DNA of 64,000 nucleotides from Patescibacteria group bacterium (lineage in GTDB: Bacteria; Patescibacteriota; Patescibacteriia; Magasanikbacterales; GWA2-37-8): positions 40,262 through 104,261 of the forward strand of contig JAQWDH010000002.1 in NCBI GenBank assembly GCA_028705565.1. Reading direction: 5' to 3'. The position numbers were made by a program, and so were the translations under genes. The notes beneath the pieces are model-generated. The model did not search any database, had not been told where the DNA came from, and saw only the letters and a program-made list of their open reading frames with translations. Shown here piece by piece: positions 13,528-46,165 of this stretch. The first letter of the stretch is position 1. The number at the start of each line of letters is the position of its first letter.

Positions 13528-13692
13528 GGGACTGTCGCCGAATATGTTTGTCATTCCCGCCCCGTCATCCGACGGGGTAAACTCCAATTATTGTCATTCC
13601 CGCGAAAGCGGGAATCCATGTAATCGAACGATGGATTCCCGCTTTCGCGGGAATGACATAATAAACGATTTTTGTTATTCGGCGACAGTCCC
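13528..13692. mobile_element. MITE-like palindromic element (~165 bp) with 16-bp terminal inverted repeats (ggactgtcgccgaata / tattcggcgacagtcc) and internal gtcattcccgcgaaagcgggaatcc palindromes
   Basis: TIRs and internal palindrome read from the sequence. Other copies are at 46030-46165, inside tgt at 20351-20417, and as fragments elsewhere. Confidence 0.65.
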
Positions 13693-19802: not shown

Positions 19803-19930
19803 AAAATTAAAATTAAACAGACTATAGACTAAGGACTATTGACCATTGTCGCGGACTGTGAATCAATTGTCCAATAAATACACAATACCACAATCTTGCT
19901 TTTTGAGTCAAAAAATGATATATATACGAG

Positions 19931-21238
19931 ATGCGAAATTATATGAAATTTTTTGAGACAATTCACCAAGACAAAAAAAGCCGCGCGCGAGCCGGCATAA
20001 TCCGCGCTGAACACGGCGATATTGAAACGCCGGTTTTTATGCCTGTCGGAACGCAGGCTGTCGTAAAAACTTTGGATAGCGAAGATTTGGAAAAAATCAA
20101 CGCGCAAATTATTTTGGGAAACACATATCATCTGCATCTTCGGTCCGGAGAAGATTTAATCGCGGAAATGGGCGGGCTTCACAAATTTATGAATTGGAAC
20201 AAACCGATTCTCACCGACTCGGGCGGTTTCCAAGTTTTCAGTTTAGGAAAATCATTATTACGACCCACATCTTGTAGAGAGTTGGGATACACCTCAAACA
20301 ATACAAAAATGGATTACAAATCTACCAACAAGGCAGATGGGAATTTCAACTGTCATTCCCGTGAAAACGGGAATCCAGACAATTTGGCGATGGATTCCCG
20401 CCTGCGCGGGAATGACAATACAAAATTGGTAAAAATTGACGACGATGGAGTGTCGTTTCGCTCGCACATTGACGGTTCAAAACATCGCTTTACTCCGGAG
20501 TCGGCGACTGAAATTCAAAATAAGCTCGGCGCTGATATTATTATGGCTTTTGACGAATGCACGCCGGATGAAGCGCCATACGAATACGCGCGGAAAGCGT
20601 TAGACCGCACGCACGACTGGGCGAAAAGATGCTTGGATTTTCATCAAAAAAACAAAAAAAACGAAAAACAATTTTTATTTGGCATCATTCAAGGCGCGAA
20701 GCATAAAGATTTAAGAGAAGAATCCGCCCATTTTATTTCTTCGCTTGATTTTGACGGCATTGCCATAGGCGGAGAATCAATCGGTTATAATATGGAGGCC
20801 ACAAAAGAAATAATGGATTGGGTAACGCCGATTATTCCGGAAAATAAACCGCGCTATACCATGGGTGTCGGACTTGACCCCGCTGATTTATTGCAAGTTG
20901 TGGAAAGCGGAGCAGATATGTTTGATTGCGTCGCCCCAACGCGATTAGCAAGGCATGGTGTGCTGTTTATCAGCGATAAAGCGGACTGTAAACATCGCCT
21001 AAACATTACCAACGCTCAATACACAAAAGACGCGAGTCCGATTGATGAAAAGTGCGAATGTCCTGTTTGTCTGAAATATACTCGCGCTTACATCCATCAT
21101 CTTTTTTTAGCCGATGAAATGACCGGCATGCGCCTCGCTTCAATCCATAACCTGTATTTTATGCTTGATTTAATGCGTAAAACCCGACAGGCGATTTTGG
21201 AAGACAATTTTATGGAATTTAAGAAAAAATGGAAATAA
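19931..21238 (+). CDS. tgt: queuine tRNA-ribosyltransferase carrying an in-frame ~60-aa insertion derived from a palindromic repeat element
   Basis: Tgt motifs are present (PVFMPVGTQA, DSGGFQVFSLG, FDEC, zinc site CxCxxC...H). Compared with E. coli Tgt (SLGDIRKITEQGVHF), the insert is KSLLRPTS...NCHSRENGNPD...MDSRLRGNDN...; the genuine start may be Met5. Confidence 0.85.
   Translation: MRNYMKFFETIHQDKKSRARAGIIRAEHGDIETPVFMPVGTQAVVKTLDSEDLEKINAQIILGNTYHLHLRSGEDLIAEMGGLHKFMNWNKPILTDSGGFQVFSLGKSLLRPTSCRELGYTSNNTKMDYKSTNKADGNFNCHSRENGNPDNLAMDSRLRGNDNTKLVKIDDDGVSFRSHIDGSKHRFTPESATEIQNKLGADIIMAFDECTPDEAPYEYARKALDRTHDWAKRCLDFHQKNKKNEKQFLFGIIQGAKHKDLREESAHFISSLDFDGIAIGGESIGYNMEATKEIMDWVTPIIPENKPRYTMGVGLDPADLLQVVESGADMFDCVAPTRLARHGVLFISDKADCKHRLNITNAQYTKDASPIDEKCECPVCLKYTRAYIHHLFLADEMTGMRLASIHNLYFMLDLMRKTRQAILEDNFMEFKKKWK
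20351..20417. repeat. MITE-family palindromic core (tgtcattcccgtgaaaacgggaatcc ... ggattcccgcctgcgcgggaatgaca) embedded in-frame in tgt
   Basis: Sequence identity to the internal palindromes of the MITE at 13528-13692. Confidence 0.7.
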
Positions 21239-21242
21239 AAAT

Positions 21243-21722
21243 ATGCTTAATATAACTTTAATAACTCTCGGAAAACTCAAAGAAAAATACTGGCGCGACG
21301 CTGAAGCTGAATATATGAAACGATTGAAGCCATACGCCAAAATCACGATTCGCGAATTGAAAGAAGAATCTTTTTCCGAGAAAGACAACCATGAAACGAT
21401 AAAAAAGAAAGAAGCGGAAAAAATCGCGCGCGCTTTGAATTCATTAAAAAATAATTTTATTATTATCTTGGATGAACACGGACAAGAGTCTCCTTCTTTT
21501 GACTTCGCGCGAAATTTTGACGACGCGATGTCAAAACAATCCGGCAACGCCGTGTTTATCATCGGCGGACCTCTTGGATTGGACGAATCAATTTTAAAAC
21601 TCGCTCATCTCAAATTATCGCTATCCAAAATGACATTCACGCACCAAATGGCGAGAGTGTTTCTTTTGGAACAAATTTATCGCGCGATGATGATAAAACA
21701 AGGCAGAAAATACCATTATTGA
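21243..21722 (+). CDS. rlmH: 23S rRNA (pseudouridine1915-N3)-methyltransferase RlmH (SPOUT)
   Basis: Collinear with E. coli RlmH, including the C-terminal ...THQMARVFLLEQIYRA....HY. Confidence 0.8.
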   Translation: MLNITLITLGKLKEKYWRDAEAEYMKRLKPYAKITIRELKEESFSEKDNHETIKKKEAEKIARALNSLKNNFIIILDEHGQESPSFDFARNFDDAMSKQSGNAVFIIGGPLGLDESILKLAHLKLSLSKMTFTHQMARVFLLEQIYRAMMIKQGRKYHY

Positions 21723-21893
21723 CGGACGACGGACGTAATTGTCATTCCCGCGAAAGCCATGCCTACCGGCAGGCAGGCGGAAATCCAGAAACTTTGCTAA
21801 ATGACAATTGAAATGACAATCAAAATTATAGACAATCCCTTTAAAATCATCTACACTAAACATATCGCGAGACATTAAATATACAATATAAAT

Positions 21894-22871
21894 ATGCAAC
21901 GCATTTTATCCGGCATACAGCCGACAAACAAACTTCATCTCGGAAATTACCTGGGGGCCATAAAAAATTGGGTTAATTTGCAAAATCAATTTGAATGCTT
22001 TTTTTTCATTGTTGATTTGCATGCCATCACGGTAAAACAAGACCCAAAAATTCTGCGCGAAAACACATTGGATGTGATAAAAACATACATCGCTTTGGGC
22101 GTTAACCCGAAAAAATCCATAATTTTCGTTCAATCGGATATAAAAGAACACGCCGAACTCGCATGGATTTTAAATACCATCACAAAAATATCCGAATTGG
22201 AAAGGATGACTCAATTCAAGGATAAATCGCGCCAACACGCTGAAAACATTAATGTCGGGCTTTTTGCTTATCCGGTGTTGATGGCCGCGGATATTTTGCT
22301 TTATAACACAAATCTTGTGCCGGTTGGGGAAGACCAGACACAACATTTGGAGTTGTCTCGTCTTCTCGCTAATAGATTTAACCAATTATTCGGCGACACT
22401 TTCATTATTCCGGAACCGTTTATCGGAAAACAAGGAGCTCGCGTGATGGGTCTGGACGACCCGACAAAAAAAATGAGCAAAGGCGCTTCCTCGCCAAATA
22501 ATTATATCGCGCTTTTGGATGACCCGGATGTCGCGAGGAAAAAAATAATGAAAGCGGTAACCGACTCCGGCTCGGAAATTAAAGCGGCGGATAACAAACC
22601 CGCGCTCGCGAATCTTTTAACGATTTATTCTCTGCTCGCGGATAAAACAATCAAAGAAATTGAAAAAGAATACGCCGGACGCGGATACGCGGATTTTAAA
22701 AAAGGGCTGGCTGAAACTACTGTAAAATTCCTCGCGGATTTTCAAAAAAAATTCAACTCCATCGGCGACGCGGAGGCGAAAAAGATATTAAAAAGCGGAG
22801 CTGAAAAAGCGCGCTCTGTCGCATTTAAAAAAATGAAAGAAATTAAAGAAAAAATCGGCTTGGGTTTTTAA
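21894..22871 (+). CDS. trpS: tryptophanyl-tRNA synthetase
   Basis: Class I motifs HLGNY (HIGH-like) and KMSKGAS (KMSKS), about 325 aa. Confidence 0.9.
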   Translation: MQRILSGIQPTNKLHLGNYLGAIKNWVNLQNQFECFFFIVDLHAITVKQDPKILRENTLDVIKTYIALGVNPKKSIIFVQSDIKEHAELAWILNTITKISELERMTQFKDKSRQHAENINVGLFAYPVLMAADILLYNTNLVPVGEDQTQHLELSRLLANRFNQLFGDTFIIPEPFIGKQGARVMGLDDPTKKMSKGASSPNNYIALLDDPDVARKKIMKAVTDSGSEIKAADNKPALANLLTIYSLLADKTIKEIEKEYAGRGYADFKKGLAETTVKFLADFQKKFNSIGDAEAKKILKSGAEKARSVAFKKMKEIKEKIGLGF

Positions 22872-22882
22872 TTTAAAAAAAT

Positions 22883-23284
22883 ATGAGTGAAAGAGAAAAT
22901 TTTAATTTTGAAAAAGAAAAATATAAAAAATTTCCGATAGACGAAATCGTTGATATTTTGGAAGAAACAAAAGAAATGAACGGAAAAACTGAAAAAGAAA
23001 TTATACGGCTCGCGAAAAATTACATTAAAGAATTGAGCGGCGGAAAAAAAATTGAAGAAATTTTGAAAGAAGCCAAGGAAATGATTGACCCGCGCGACCG
23101 CGAACATCCGGATAATGACGGCTCGCTCATGGCGGAAATTGAGATAATCCCTTTTAAAAATAAAGATATAAATGACACCACGGCGTCTTTTTTACTGCGT
23201 GAAAAAAATAATCCTCGGTTTAATGTCCAAAAAAATAAAGGATATATAATTATGGAAATTCCATACAACGATTTGCTTGATTGA
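22883..23284 (+). CDS. hypothetical protein
   Basis: ORF only. Confidence 0.35.
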   Translation: MSERENFNFEKEKYKKFPIDEIVDILEETKEMNGKTEKEIIRLAKNYIKELSGGKKIEEILKEAKEMIDPRDREHPDNDGSLMAEIEIIPFKNKDINDTTASFLLREKNNPRFNVQKNKGYIIMEIPYNDLLD

Positions 23285-23352
23285 ATTTTATCGGGTTAAT
23301 TATTTAAATTTTTCAATTAAAATAGGCCCGCCGAAACGGCAGGCCTTTTTTG

Positions 23353-24024
23353 TTATTTAAAATATTCCAGATAATCCGGAATTTTCGTTACAGGATTATC
23401 TGAAATAAATTCTTTGTCTTCCTCTTTTTCCGGAAGCCAGCAATTTTTAATTATTTTAATTTTTTTTCTTATTAAAATTTCTTTCAAAATACACTTAAGT
23501 TCCGAAGGGCTGTACGCTCCTCTCTTTATCCCTTCGTTTTTTATCAGATGTTCCATTAAAAAATACACGAATTTGTTGGCTTTTTTATCTTTATCTGTGT
23601 TTACGCCTTCTTTTTCCATTTTTTCCAACTCAATTAATTTTTTTTCAAGATAGAGAACTTCCGTCCCGAAAATGACACTCCAATAATATTCAAAAACATT
23701 ATTATCCTTATTACCCTTTGTAATTTGGGAGAATGTCCTTTCCCTAACGAGGTTTTCCACCTCAAATGGCGTTAGGTCGTACGACAATGGCGTTAGGTCA
23801 TACAACCACACCTTGAACAACCCGTGCCACGCCATATGGTGGCCTAAAAAAACTTCAATTATATTTTTTTTTGAATTTATTCCACCCCTGCACAACGGAA
23901 CACAATGATGTTCCGTTATAGTAGAGAGAAACCGCGGGATACTTACTTTTTTACGCTCTGGGCTTTTATTCTTCTTTGGTTTTTTTCTTCTACGCGTCAT
24001 CATTTTCCTCCTTTTCATTTTCAA
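23353..24024 (-). CDS. HNH-endonuclease-like protein with a highly basic N-terminal tail
   Basis: Motif EHHCVPLCRGGINSKKNIIEVFLGHHMAWH matches the HNH pattern HH..P...GG...N......H...H. The gene contains a 21-bp tandem duplication (YDLTPLSYDLTP). Confidence 0.5.
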   Translation of the reverse strand: MKMKRRKMMTRRRKKPKKNKSPERKKVSIPRFLSTITEHHCVPLCRGGINSKKNIIEVFLGHHMAWHGLFKVWLYDLTPLSYDLTPFEVENLVRERTFSQITKGNKDNNVFEYYWSVIFGTEVLYLEKKLIELEKMEKEGVNTDKDKKANKFVYFLMEHLIKNEGIKRGAYSPSELKCILKEILIRKKIKIIKNCWLPEKEEDKEFISDNPVTKIPDYLEYFK

Positions 24025-24509
24025 TCAAAAATTTTAAATTGTAGATAGTCCTCCAATACCTTTCCAACAACTTCAATTTTATTATCTGCCATAAATAACT
24101 TCCACCTTTTTTTAATCCCACTCTCCATATCAAATTCAATATGTCCGCCTGAAAATCCGATCCTCAAAATTAATCCGTCTTTCCCGTTTTTTTTGATATC
24201 CGCTAAAACATCGGTATTAACCATCTTCTCCGAGGAATATACTACATAAGAAACCACAGAAGAGCAGAAATCAGAAAAAAATTTCTCCACTTTAAAAATT
24301 TCTCCGTTCTGTTTGCCTACTGGCACTGAACAGCGAATTTCTATTTTTTTTCCGACAATTTCATTTAATTTCTTAAATTTTTTATTTGTTATTTCATTCA
24401 AAAACTCTACCAAAAATTTCTCCAGATCCTCGTTTTGTGATTCTTTGTTTTGTTCTTTTTTCATTTTTTCCTCCAATTTTTGTCCGCCTTCAGCGGACTG
24501 ATTTTTCAA
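24021..24509 (-). CDS. hypothetical protein; its stop overlaps the start of the HNH-like gene by 4 nt
   Basis: ORF with a 4-nt start/stop overlap, suggesting a two-gene operon. Confidence 0.4.
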   Translation of the reverse strand: MKNQSAEGGQKLEEKMKKEQNKESQNEDLEKFLVEFLNEITNKKFKKLNEIVGKKIEIRCSVPVGKQNGEIFKVEKFFSDFCSSVVSYVVYSSEKMVNTDVLADIKKNGKDGLILRIGFSGGHIEFDMESGIKKRWKLFMADNKIEVVGKVLEDYLQFKIFD

Positions 24510-24611
24510 AGTTCTTCCTCCTTATTCGTTTCTAAACTTACACTGTATCGCGGATTGTGTCAATACAAGCCCTTGATTTTTTTATTTTTTCTGGTATTAT
24601 TTAATGGACGA

Positions 24612-24685
24612 TAGGGGGTTCGTATAGTGGCAGTACAGCGGTCTCCAAAACCGTTAGCGCGGGTTCGATTCCTGCACCCCCTGCC
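24612..24685 (+). tRNA. tRNA-Trp (anticodon CCA), CCA end encoded
   Basis: Manual cloverleaf: acceptor agggggt/accccct, anticodon loop ctCCAaa, T-loop ttcgatt, 74 nt. Confidence 0.85.
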
Positions 24686-24690
24686 AATCA

Positions 24691-24725
24691 AAAAACCGTC
24701 CGGTAGAATGACCGGACGGTTTTTA
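24691..24725 (+). terminator. rho-independent terminator (aaaaccgtccgg...ccggacggtttt + T-run) after tRNA-Trp
   Basis: 12-bp stem followed by a T-rich tract. Confidence 0.7.
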
Positions 24726-24751
24726 GATTTTTACTTATTTTCTTCCGCTTC

Positions 24752-25303
24752 TTAAAATTTTTTTATTCTATTTCTAACCGATTCAACCACATCTTGAAAA
24801 TCCTTTTCTTCTTTCTCCTCGTCTCTTTTCTTTTTTTCTTCCGTTTCTTTTTGCGCTTCATTTTTTCTCTTGTCTTCCTCGTCTTTCTTTTTCTTTATCT
24901 CAATAAACGCCTCTTCTATCGCGTCTTCATCCGACTTTTCCGCTTCTTCCGTTTTTTTGTTCGCTTCTTCGGCTTGCCGCGCTTCATCTCTTAAAGAAAA
25001 ATTTTTTTCATTTTTTGTTTTATCTTCAAATAAAATACCAACATCGTCGCTTTTTTTTTCCAATCTCGGGTAAGATTTAAGCGGCCCGCCGATAATTTCT
25101 TCCACCTCTTTTTCTTTGGCGATTTTTTCCTCGGCTTTTTCCGCTTTTATTTTCATCGCCAATTTATCAGCTATTTCTTCCACGCTTTCCTCGGCTCTTA
25201 CGCCAACGCGTTTGTCATCTTCTTTTTGCGCGCCCATCATTTCTTTATCTTTTTTGCTTAAAAACTTTTCCAATCCCCTGTTTAAAAATTCTCCTATGGA
25301 CAT
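24752..25303 (-). CDS. hypothetical highly charged (K/E-rich) protein
   Basis: ORF only; low complexity. Confidence 0.35.
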   Translation of the reverse strand: MSIGEFLNRGLEKFLSKKDKEMMGAQKEDDKRVGVRAEESVEEIADKLAMKIKAEKAEEKIAKEKEVEEIIGGPLKSYPRLEKKSDDVGILFEDKTKNEKNFSLRDEARQAEEANKKTEEAEKSDEDAIEEAFIEIKKKKDEEDKRKNEAQKETEEKKKRDEEKEEKDFQDVVESVRNRIKKF

Positions 25304-25348
25304 ACTTTTATGGATTAAAAATAAATTATTCGTTGAATTCCATACAAT

Positions 25349-26191
25349 TTACTCGCCTAACTTATTAACATTTTTTAGCCCCTTCTTTTCATCGGATTTC
25401 AGTTTCCTATCAACTTTTTTTATATCTTCCTCAGCCGGTAAATTTTCCGGATAAATGCCTCTGGAAATTAAAGTTTTTCTAACCGACCGGCTGTTTGTAA
25501 TGTGTTCATCGGAAATTTGCATTTCGCTATTCAAACCTTTTTCTTTGGAATTAAAAATAGTAATCTCGGTGGCGAAATCTTTGGCTTTTAAAATAATGGT
25601 CGGCTGAAAATCAGCTAATGCTCGGCTGTCTGGAATTCCCAACCTATTTTTCATTTCTTGCGTGGTATAACCAAACAATGCCTTGTCGCCTTTGCTCCTG
25701 ATTAACCCAAAATTTTTATCGCTTCCGGTTTACTGGAAAATTACGCCTGAAAGTTCTTTTTCTGTTTCAGATAACTTTTGTCGCGCCAGCAACCGTTCCG
25801 AGTCCTGTATTCTTTTCTCTATAATCTCAAACTTTCTGGTTTGGACGGCAAAATATGTCTGAGCAAAGGCAATCTCTTCTTTCCGTGGGTCGCCATTTTG
25901 AGCTATGAGATAACAGGCATACCTGGTAAGCATTACATCAAGCACCTCTTTTTCCGCAGTTTTAGGCATTTTTATCGTTTTCCCGACATCGGCAAAATGA
26001 TCGGAGGTGGTCTGCCCGGATATTTCACAAGCCGTTTTCGCTTTAAAAATAACCTTCAAAAAATTATCCCACTTATCATATCCTAAAAGGTGTTGCAGGT
26101 CGCGCGCAAACCAAAATTCAATGCCATTTTCTGTCTTATTGATAAAAGATTCAAAATTTTGCGTTAGTGATTGTATGATTTGATGTTCCAT
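25349..26191 (-). pseudogene. dinD: DNA-damage-inducible protein D (DinD) homolog interrupted by one in-frame TAA (25730-25732); both halves are in the same frame
   Basis: The N-terminal half (EFWFARDLQHLLGYDKWDNFLKVIFKAKTACEISGQTTSDHF...TRYACYLIAQNGDP...QTYFAVQTR) is collinear with E. coli DinD. The C-terminal half continues in the same frame after the stop (...IFQ*TGSDKNFG...). Confidence 0.6.
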
Positions 26192-46029: not shown

Positions 46030-46165
46030 CGCCCCATCATCCGACGGGGTAAACTCCAATTGTTGTCATTCCCGCGAAAGCGGGAATCCATCGTCCGATT
46101 ATATGGATTCCCGCTTTCGCGGGAATGACAGAATGAACGATTTTCGTTATTCGGCGACAGCCCCT
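46030..46165. mobile_element. Second MITE-family copy, 5'-truncated, carrying gtcattcccgcgaaagcgggaatccat...atggattcccgctttcgcgggaatgaca and the right TIR
   Basis: Near-identical to 13560-13692. The spurious ORF 46037..46342 is its translation (IPAKAGIH...IPAFAGMT). Confidence 0.65.

Follow-up and report, generated by a model that had tools for sequence, protein, structure and literature searches.

How a palindromic repeat comes to lie within the reading frame of a conserved enzyme gene, and what kind of repeat it is, are the questions raised by the tgt locus of a Patescibacteria group bacterium (Magasanikbacterales; contig JAQWDH010000002.1 of assembly GCA_028705565.1). The stretch of this contig that was analysed, 64,000 nt in length, is referred to as the window. 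Its tgt gene encodes the tRNA guanosine(34) transglycosylase (Tgt) with 57 additional codons in one loop, and a pair of hairpins lies in the additional DNA. The insert is probably selfish hairpin-repeat DNA that became joined to the tgt frame and is tolerated there. It is polymorphic between two near-identical strains, its core belongs by motif to a repeat family associated with small GIY-YIG nuclease genes, the Tgt of the window is intact, and comparable inserts recur in Tgt homologues.

The tgt gene is located at positions 19931–21238 on the plus strand and forms an uninterrupted open reading frame (ORF) of 435 aa, with an alternative ATG start at 19943. The protein scores 503.6 bits against the NCBIfam equivalog TIGR00430 (cut-off 306.75) and also matches Pfam TGT. 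Its translation keeps the motifs LTDSGG, AFDEC and MFDCV together with the CxCxxC...HH zinc site, so that the equivalog match and the catalytic and zinc motifs agree in assigning it to bacterial Tgt. The HMMER match to Zymomonas mobilis TGT (1.6e-102) consists of two pieces, query residues 15–107 and 165–432, with ~57 residues unmatched between them. Both pieces abut residue 113 of the Z. mobilis protein, which puts the insert point between this residue and residue 114. The translation of the insert contains ...NCHSRENGNPDNLAMDSRLRGNDN..., and ENGNPDNLAMDSR is an example peptide of this predicted translation. These results are in line with the original prediction, made from the sequence of the window, of an insertion of ~60 aa that carries a tell-tale peptide in frame, with no stop or frameshift. 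The prediction had also called tgt essential, a label for which the present data offer no basis; E. coli tgt mutants are viable.

The boundaries of the insert are defined by comparison with L001, a contig of 97.7 kb from a closely related strain. Its Tgt (P0001), the best protein match, has the loop VFSLGKSLVKIDDDGVS with nothing extra and reads GKSLVKIDDDG. In BLASTN and MAFFT alignments, the window reads TCATT[A..171 nt..TT]GGTAAAA at the junction, opposite TCATTGGTAAAA in L001. The insertion therefore spans 171 nt at 20258–20428 (plus strand), corresponding to 57 codons without a stop that encode LRPTSCRELGYTSNNTKMDYKSTNKADGNFNCHSRENGNPDNLAMDSRLRGNDNTKL, and not 20249–20431 as first proposed. 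A placement at 20255–20425 is equivalent, the boundary being ambiguous by one TTA/TTG codon, and the outer junction shows a 3-nt ATT/TTR ambiguity in the single empty/filled pair compared (window and L001). On either side of the divergent region, L001 shares 99.3–99.7% identity with the window. The insertion is lineage-specific. A scan of contigs for Tgt mostly gave distant bacteria, the conserved peptide pattern dominating, and only L002 and L003 are close.

The region from tgt to beyond trpS (~5.5 kb; window 19929–25360 vs L001:10108–15338) is only 93–95% identical, compared with >99% in the flanks. Apart from the insert, 68 of 1125 nt and 15 of 375 aa distinguish the two tgt alleles, with a synonymous divergence (dS) of 0.27 and a ratio of nonsynonymous to synonymous divergence (dN/dS) of 0.068. 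This ratio indicates purifying selection on the gene between the two alleles, and it covers the time before and the time after the insertion jointly. A dS of 0.27 beside near-identical flanks indicates that the tgt alleles are much older than the DNA around them. The ~5.5-kb block looks like an imported allele block, as reported near dRS3 repeats in Neisseria. It is bounded on the left by an indel that holds a GIY-YIG gene in L001 and on the right by an indel of 598 nt.

The AlphaFold model of Tgt, built with 121 aligned sequences and numbered from the ATG at 19943, has a predicted template modelling score of 0.83. Its core reaches a predicted local distance difference test score (pLDDT) above 90, whereas residues 98–160, which cover the insert region, remain below 50 and form a coil without secondary structure. 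The model superimposes on Z. mobilis TGT (1ozm) in Foldseek (TM-score 0.93 when normalised to the target; root-mean-square deviation 1.8 Å). A hairpin comes after the DSGGFQ active-site strand, and the insert is located at its distal end. The Tgt core appears to be functional, with barrel, catalytic aspartates and zinc site all intact, and the insert is modelled as a disordered extension of a floppy surface loop that the enzyme appears to tolerate. Across 121 sequences, this loop is between 6 and 63 aa long. Together with the mapping on Z. mobilis TGT, these features agree with the earlier suggestion that the insertion lies in a tolerated surface loop. The literature gave no match for the tell-tale peptides or for the Z. 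mobilis loop residues.

Within the insert, only a 69-nt core (20350–20418) resembles the intergenic copies of the window, with 87% identity to 46063–46131 and 84% to 13592–13658 (BLAST in the window). The core is an inverted pair of 28-nt hairpins, each of which folds alone with an 8-bp stem and a 4-nt loop. Hairpin 1 (TGTCATTCCCGTGAAAACGGGAATCCAG; 20351–20378, plus strand) has a GAAA loop and is read as CHSRENGNP; compared with the intergenic form GCGAAAGC, it carries two paired changes (GTGAAAAC) that preserve the stem. An 11-nt spacer (20379–20389) connects it to hairpin 2 (20390–20417), which reads TGTCATTCCCGCGCAGGCGGGAATCCAT on the minus strand and MDSRLRGND in the plus-strand translation. 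The spacers differ among the three window copies of the pair. In addition, the insert region folds far better than its shuffles (z = −4.4 as DNA and −4.6 as RNA). The prediction that the insert shares the palindromes of the intergenic copies thus holds for the hairpins, six of which occur in the window, and the similarity ends at the borders of the core.

The hairpins resemble a repeat system described in Neisseria. Chenal et al. (2025, Nat Commun; PMC11893778) report that the dRS3 palindrome ATTCCC-N8-GGGAAT is the core of the 28-nt NTS CGTCATTCCCGCGMAVGCGGGAATCYRG, that NTS is bound by SsnA, a small GIY-YIG nuclease which cuts next to it in single-stranded DNA only, and that SsnA lowers transformation. 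The same study reports that Ssn-related motifs (SRM) surround ssn genes across phyla, and likens the repeats to REP elements and their domesticated IS200/IS605-family transposases, as a parallel only. In the window, ATTCCC-N8-GGGAAT occurs six times (13596, 13635, 20355, 20394, 46068 and 46107), vs 0.01 expected by chance, and both tgt hairpins contain it (20355–20374 and 20394–20413). The 25-mer GTCATTCCCGCGAAAGCGGGAATCC finds the same six places at up to two mismatches, with none expected. Moreover, the published SRM search motif, HGTCWYN(0-2)YYVSBRHN(0-5)WNVSBRGN(0-2)RNCYNB (PMC11893778), is matched exactly by each of the six hairpins, whereas 50 first-order Markov simulations of the window gave a mean of 0.04 matches. 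Counted by hand, the six differ from the NTS consensus at two or three positions; hairpin 1 has three mismatches and hairpin 2 has two terminal ones, which places the tgt hairpins outside the strict NTS definition, for which the authors allow one mismatch. Each strand of the insert carries one hairpin in NTS orientation. The exact left-arm 25-mer is present in at least 120 metagenome contigs with GC contents of 0.32–0.67, so the repeat is a cross-phylum one and not a local family. Judged by motif, the insert core can be assigned to the SRM repeats.

Genes for small GIY-YIG proteins are found next to some copies of such hairpins in other contigs. Upstream of tgt, alignment with L001 reveals an indel site (window 19811–19846) at which L001 contains a unit of ~470 nt (L001:9476–9950) absent from the window. 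The unit comprises a ~100-aa single-domain, Ssn-like GIY-YIG gene flanked by GTCATTGCGA...TCGCAATGAC hairpins, and its protein matches Pfam GIY-YIG at 1.3e-14. Among the 25-mer matches listed, L148, L156 and L165 have the hairpin on one or both sides of a ~100-aa GIY-YIG gene whose product is 33–42% identical to the L001 protein (tblastn), and no such gene was found by tblastn in 78 control loci. This arrangement corresponds to the published NTS-ssn-NTS layout. In a further Tgt locus, L084, a small GIY-YIG gene lies 2.6 kb upstream of tgt and adjoins a repeat copy.

The left part of the insert, an orphan segment of 93 nt (20258–20350, plus strand), has no significant match within the window (BLAST), in 2 Mb of fetched loci (BLAST) or in metagenome contigs (exact 29-mer), and the whole 58-aa insert peptide has none in the protein collection. 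The SRM pair lies in a unit of 117 nt, and this unit is enclosed by a direct repeat, ACAATACAAAAWTGG, with copies at 20298 and 20415. The first copy (ACAATACAAAAATGG; 20298–20312, plus strand) and the second (ACAATACAAAATTGG; 20415–20429, plus strand), 117 nt downstream, match at 14 of 15 positions, a level reached by 1 of 200 dinucleotide shuffles of the region. Without the 117 nt, the loop has 24 aa and ends in NNTKLVK, like the homologue loops ending in NNEKLVK or NNQKLVS. The bracketing repeat suggests that the insertion took place in at least two steps, first 54 nt and then 117 nt. The SRM pair would have arrived together with, or after, the ~93 nt of other sequence.

The same loop carries repeat DNA in many related proteins. 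The comparison covers the query and its 120 closest Tgt sequences, whose source names, where present, are mostly Candidatus Magasanikbacteria. The loop usually has 10–17 aa, and long loops (34–63 aa) are found in 27 of the 121 sequences, the query and 26 homologues. They fall into ~16 separate runs of the neighbour-joining tree order, beside sisters with loops of 10–17 aa, and their peptides include VIPAKAGIQ...DSRLHGNDN, VIPS...GRNDN, MSSR...SRND and LSFRTERSE...ARDD. At the DNA level, seven of eight homologue inserts are hairpin elements, six of the eight have TGTCAT...ATGACA ends, and several are 90–96% identical to intergenic copies on their own contigs. The homologue inserts are unrelated in sequence to one another, and no homologue shares any part of the 57-aa insert of the window. 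The elements of the sister loci L083 and L084 are unlike in sequence and lie to opposite sides of a shared CAAGGCCAAC motif; they represent separate insertion events. In L083 this motif, which is ancestral loop DNA, is now out of frame beside the element.

In addition, three further Tgt loops (after core columns ~191–197, ~305–308 and ~333) contain repeat-type peptides. They are present in P0034, P0049, P0080, P0095, P0098, P0103 and others, some proteins having three inserts, and the second insert site of P0046 reads KELDSRLRGNDSRY. Strict targeting of one Tgt loop was rejected because the three other loops are hit and the insertion points of L083 and L084 differ; a single ancestral insertion was rejected on the same grounds and because the closest strain is empty. 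The loop of P0014 that corresponds to the insert site contains a different repeat family, with small CTCCCCCTT..AAGGGGGAG hairpins and the peptides SPLPRG and PLNPSLERRG (L206:4247–4426). This repeat type also matches inside the UvrD gene of L206 (L206:3091–3109).

In-frame hairpins of the window's type also occur in other genes. In a UvrD helicase (L082:2509–2603), comparison with the orthologue encoded in the window shows an insert of 27 aa. Further hairpins lie in long ORFs read by eye as an isoleucyl-tRNA synthetase (L104:2536–2560), a P-type ATPase (L130:5103–5127), a large methyltransferase-like protein (L151:6188–6212) and a C-terminal sorting or secretion-signal domain (L113:1524–1548). 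Of 13 cases at the DNA level, 12 have the right arm translated as D-S-R-x-x-G-N-D and one in the W-I-P...G-M-T frame, which is just as open; for the left arm, each of the three frames is used among the homologues. The bias of the right arm fits selection for hydrophilic loop peptides, the cases being few and not fully independent. The idea that the element family is selected to be neutral in length and frame is not supported, given copies of 165, 136 and 171 nt, variable spacers, the three frames of the left arm and the out-of-frame loop DNA of L083.

These features can be combined into one scheme. The repeats may land more or less anywhere, and the survivors would be those that keep the frame, avoid stops and sit in permissive surface loops. 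A filter acting on survivors, instead of a property of the element, is suggested because lengths and frames vary and several loops and genes are hit. Such a filter would explain the repeated hits on the same Tgt loops in related bacteria, as well as the near-constant D-S-R-x-x-G-N-D reading of the right arm. In the window, the insert would be transcribed and translated as a hydrophilic, disordered loop extension of 57 residues. The repeats presumably spread through an Ssn-linked process acting on single-stranded DNA, or by being copied from one repeat to another. The flanking duplication of 15 nt is a hint of annealing or template switching in place of classical transposition.

Several observations weigh against the view that the insert is tolerated selfish repeat DNA. 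The left 93 nt are explained by no repeat match, which makes the insert more than a simple repeat copy. The flanking duplication of 12–15 nt is atypical of transposition by a MITE (miniature inverted-repeat transposable element). The hairpins flanking the GIY-YIG gene of L001 are of another type, which the SRM motif does not match, and a profile resting effectively on the L001 and L084 sequences found no ssn-like gene within the window. The right-arm bias could come partly from shared ancestry or from case picking. Moreover, we infer that the insert is translated, as we do its neutrality and the route by which the repeats spread. The L001 loop GKSLVK, with 6 aa, is also the shortest among the 121 sequences, and this bears on the direction of the change. 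The long loop with its repeat might be the older state, from which L001 lost a clean 171 nt. Such a loss is unlikely, yet it has points in its favour: the two tgt alleles are old enough at dS 0.27 for several events, the junctions share TTA/TTG, and hairpin DNA is prone to deletion. Nevertheless, the 6-aa loop of L001 is as long as that of E. coli and Z. mobilis, the canonical length in bacteria, the 57 aa are absent from every other homologue, and the 84–87% identity of the core to intergenic copies of the same genome fits a gain from within the genome.

It is improbable that the insert has been put to use, be it as a site at which Ssn cuts and so restricts the recombination of tgt DNA entering the cell, as an mRNA hairpin that tunes translation or as a new peptide module of Tgt. 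The presence of one NTS-orientation hairpin on each strand would suit a cut site, given that SsnA cuts single-stranded DNA beside NTS and lowers transformation (PMC11893778), and the divergence of the tgt-to-trpS block (93–95% vs >99% in the flanks) is as described for dRS3-adjacent genes in Neisseria. The paired changes that keep the stems and the folding scores for DNA and RNA point in the same direction. However, the closest strain manages without the insert, the homologue inserts are mutually unrelated, the peptide is predicted to be disordered, and the divergent block neither starts nor ends at the insert. No terminator-like or promoter-like site was detected in the insert, an internal terminator or promoter being rejected accordingly, and the 64-kb window contains no cognate nuclease gene detectable by the profile. 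Far less probable still is a repeat misjoined into tgt during metagenome assembly. Repeats are a classic source of chimeric joins, and neither form of the exact Tgt protein, from either start codon, is on record in the contig collection, which thus offers no independent assembly of the allele. A misjoin would, however, have had to add exactly 57 codons with no stop, 93 nt of them non-repeat, with both flanks continuing the tgt frame, and many independent assemblies contain equivalent in-frame hairpin inserts, some of which are seen on as many as 8 contigs. Removal of the insert before the mature protein, as an intron or intein, is scarcely credible. The strong secondary structure would be compatible with it, and RNA-level excision had been raised in the original prediction. 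Against excision, Rfam returned no intron family and only a sub-threshold match to FtrB (28.6 bits, cut-off 66), on which basis an intron or known RNA was rejected; Pfam and NCBIfam detected no domain in the insert peptide; and the frame is kept, which excision would not need. Inteins are far longer than 57 aa. Tolerated selfish repeat DNA thus stays the preferred explanation.

Compared with known systems, the tgt hairpins are closest to the dRS3/NTS/SRM repeats of Neisseria. Both have the 20-nt palindrome ATTCCC-N8-GGGAAT with a GTCAT lead-in and occur in multiple copies, often as inverted pairs. Moreover, metagenome contigs have the exact hairpin next to small GIY-YIG genes, a homologue of which lies beside tgt in L001. 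In contrast, the published repeats lie around genes, whereas the tgt pair is inside a reading frame, in the candidate phyla radiation (CPR), and in a window without a nuclease gene. The tgt hairpins might be cleaved by Ssn. The words 'intragenic' and 'Patescibacteria' are not mentioned in the Ssn paper (PMC11893778), and a literature search of incomplete coverage found no paper on such hairpins inside reading frames or in CPR.

The Rickettsia palindromic elements (RPEs) provide the nearest precedent for repeat DNA in coding sequence. According to the summary of Ogata et al. (2000, 2002) in PMC10969869, RPEs are short palindromic repeats found in frame in unrelated housekeeping genes and also between genes, and their translation adds peptides at sites that were judged to be compatible with the fold and function of the protein. 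The tgt insert likewise brings a palindromic repeat in frame into a housekeeping gene at a structurally permissive site. It differs in sequence family, in belonging to another phylum and in composition, an RPE being an element with a consensus of ~150 bp, while the tgt unit is a 28-nt hairpin pair with unrelated sequence. In addition, one loop is here hit repeatedly by different elements across a clade. For the insert peptide and the insert-bearing Tgt proteins, NCBIfam gave Tgt-related models only, at E-values up to 1; membership of the RPE family was rejected because no other model matched, a negative that assumes that NCBIfam holds the TIGRFAM models of RPE domains. The resemblance to RPEs proposed earlier is therefore apt as an analogy and does not extend to family membership.

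Like the Neisseria intergenic mosaic elements and the arrays of repetitive extragenic palindromic sequences and bacterial interspersed mosaic elements (REP/BIME), the repeats are mosaics of short hairpins with variable segments; those arrays are extragenic by definition, whereas the tgt copy is coding. With MITEs such as Correia, ERIC and BOX, the tgt insert shares small size, non-autonomy and hairpin formation, and bacterial MITEs are occasionally found as in-frame fusions (PMC10969869). However, the ends of the insert (ATTACGACC... and ...ACAAAATT) are not inverted repeats, and no short target duplication of fixed length is evident from the one empty/filled pair. The insert is not a strict MITE, since it has no terminal inverted repeats (TIRs); in the window, TIRs, of 17 nt, are found only in intergenic copy A. 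The description of the element as MITE-like accordingly gives way to that of an inverted pair of dRS3/NTS-type hairpins, in place of a unit with TIRs and a target-site duplication.

In-frame palindromic repeat DNA is already known, and what makes this case notable is the Ssn/NTS identification and the repeated, independent hits on Tgt loops. On motif evidence, an NTS-type hairpin family appears in frame inside conserved enzymes of CPR and other environmental bacteria. This links the Ssn/NTS hairpin-nuclease system, described as extragenic and in relation to Neisseria transformation, with the selfish DNA in coding genes of Rickettsia. A broader proposal, which we regard as doubtful, is that NTS/SRM hairpins form an active cross-phylum mobile repeat, moved by Ssn-linked cutting of single-stranded DNA and microhomology annealing, that routinely seeds peptides in housekeeping proteins of streamlined bacteria, with the RPEs as one local case. 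If so, filled/empty strain pairs such as the window and L001 would make the insertion mechanism tractable. In any case, the empty and filled tgt alleles are material for working out repeat movement, and the inserts provide a natural map of permissive loops, four or more of which are prone to insertion in the Tgt of this clade. In practice, peptides derived from the repeats make proteins longer and can lead annotation, alignment and phylogeny astray in these genomes.

Intergenic element A (13528–13692) is a composite with 17-nt TIRs (GGGACTGTCGCCGAATA) and an additional CCCCGTC..GACGGGG hairpin, as identified by repeat search and BLAST; its SRM pair is positioned at 13592–13619 (plus strand) and 13631–13658 (minus strand). 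Element B (46030–46165) is 90% identical to A and lacks the left TIR (BLAST), and its SRM pair is at 46064–46091 (plus strand) and 46103–46130 (minus strand). All four hairpins match the SRM motif exactly, and each element lies between tandem minus-strand genes.

A partial or degenerate SRM-like element, found by BLAST and starting with TGTCATTCCCGCGAAAGCC, occupies 21738–21806 in the spacer between trpS and an rlmH-like gene (SPOUT methyltransferase). The same spacer in L001 (L001:11741–11842) contains a different hairpin element (TGTCAAATTTCC...), one repeat having replaced another at a single site. The sub-threshold Rfam match of the tgt hairpin pair to FtrB, a Francisella sRNA, covers 20330–20439 on both strands, and a palindromic repeat of this kind may be the origin of the FtrB family. 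At the right border of the divergent block, the 598-nt segment absent from L001 (25360–25958) lies, as judged by eye, within a gene resembling DinD (DNA-damage-inducible protein D). In the window this gene is split into two minus-strand ORFs, at 25349–25678 and 25730–26191.

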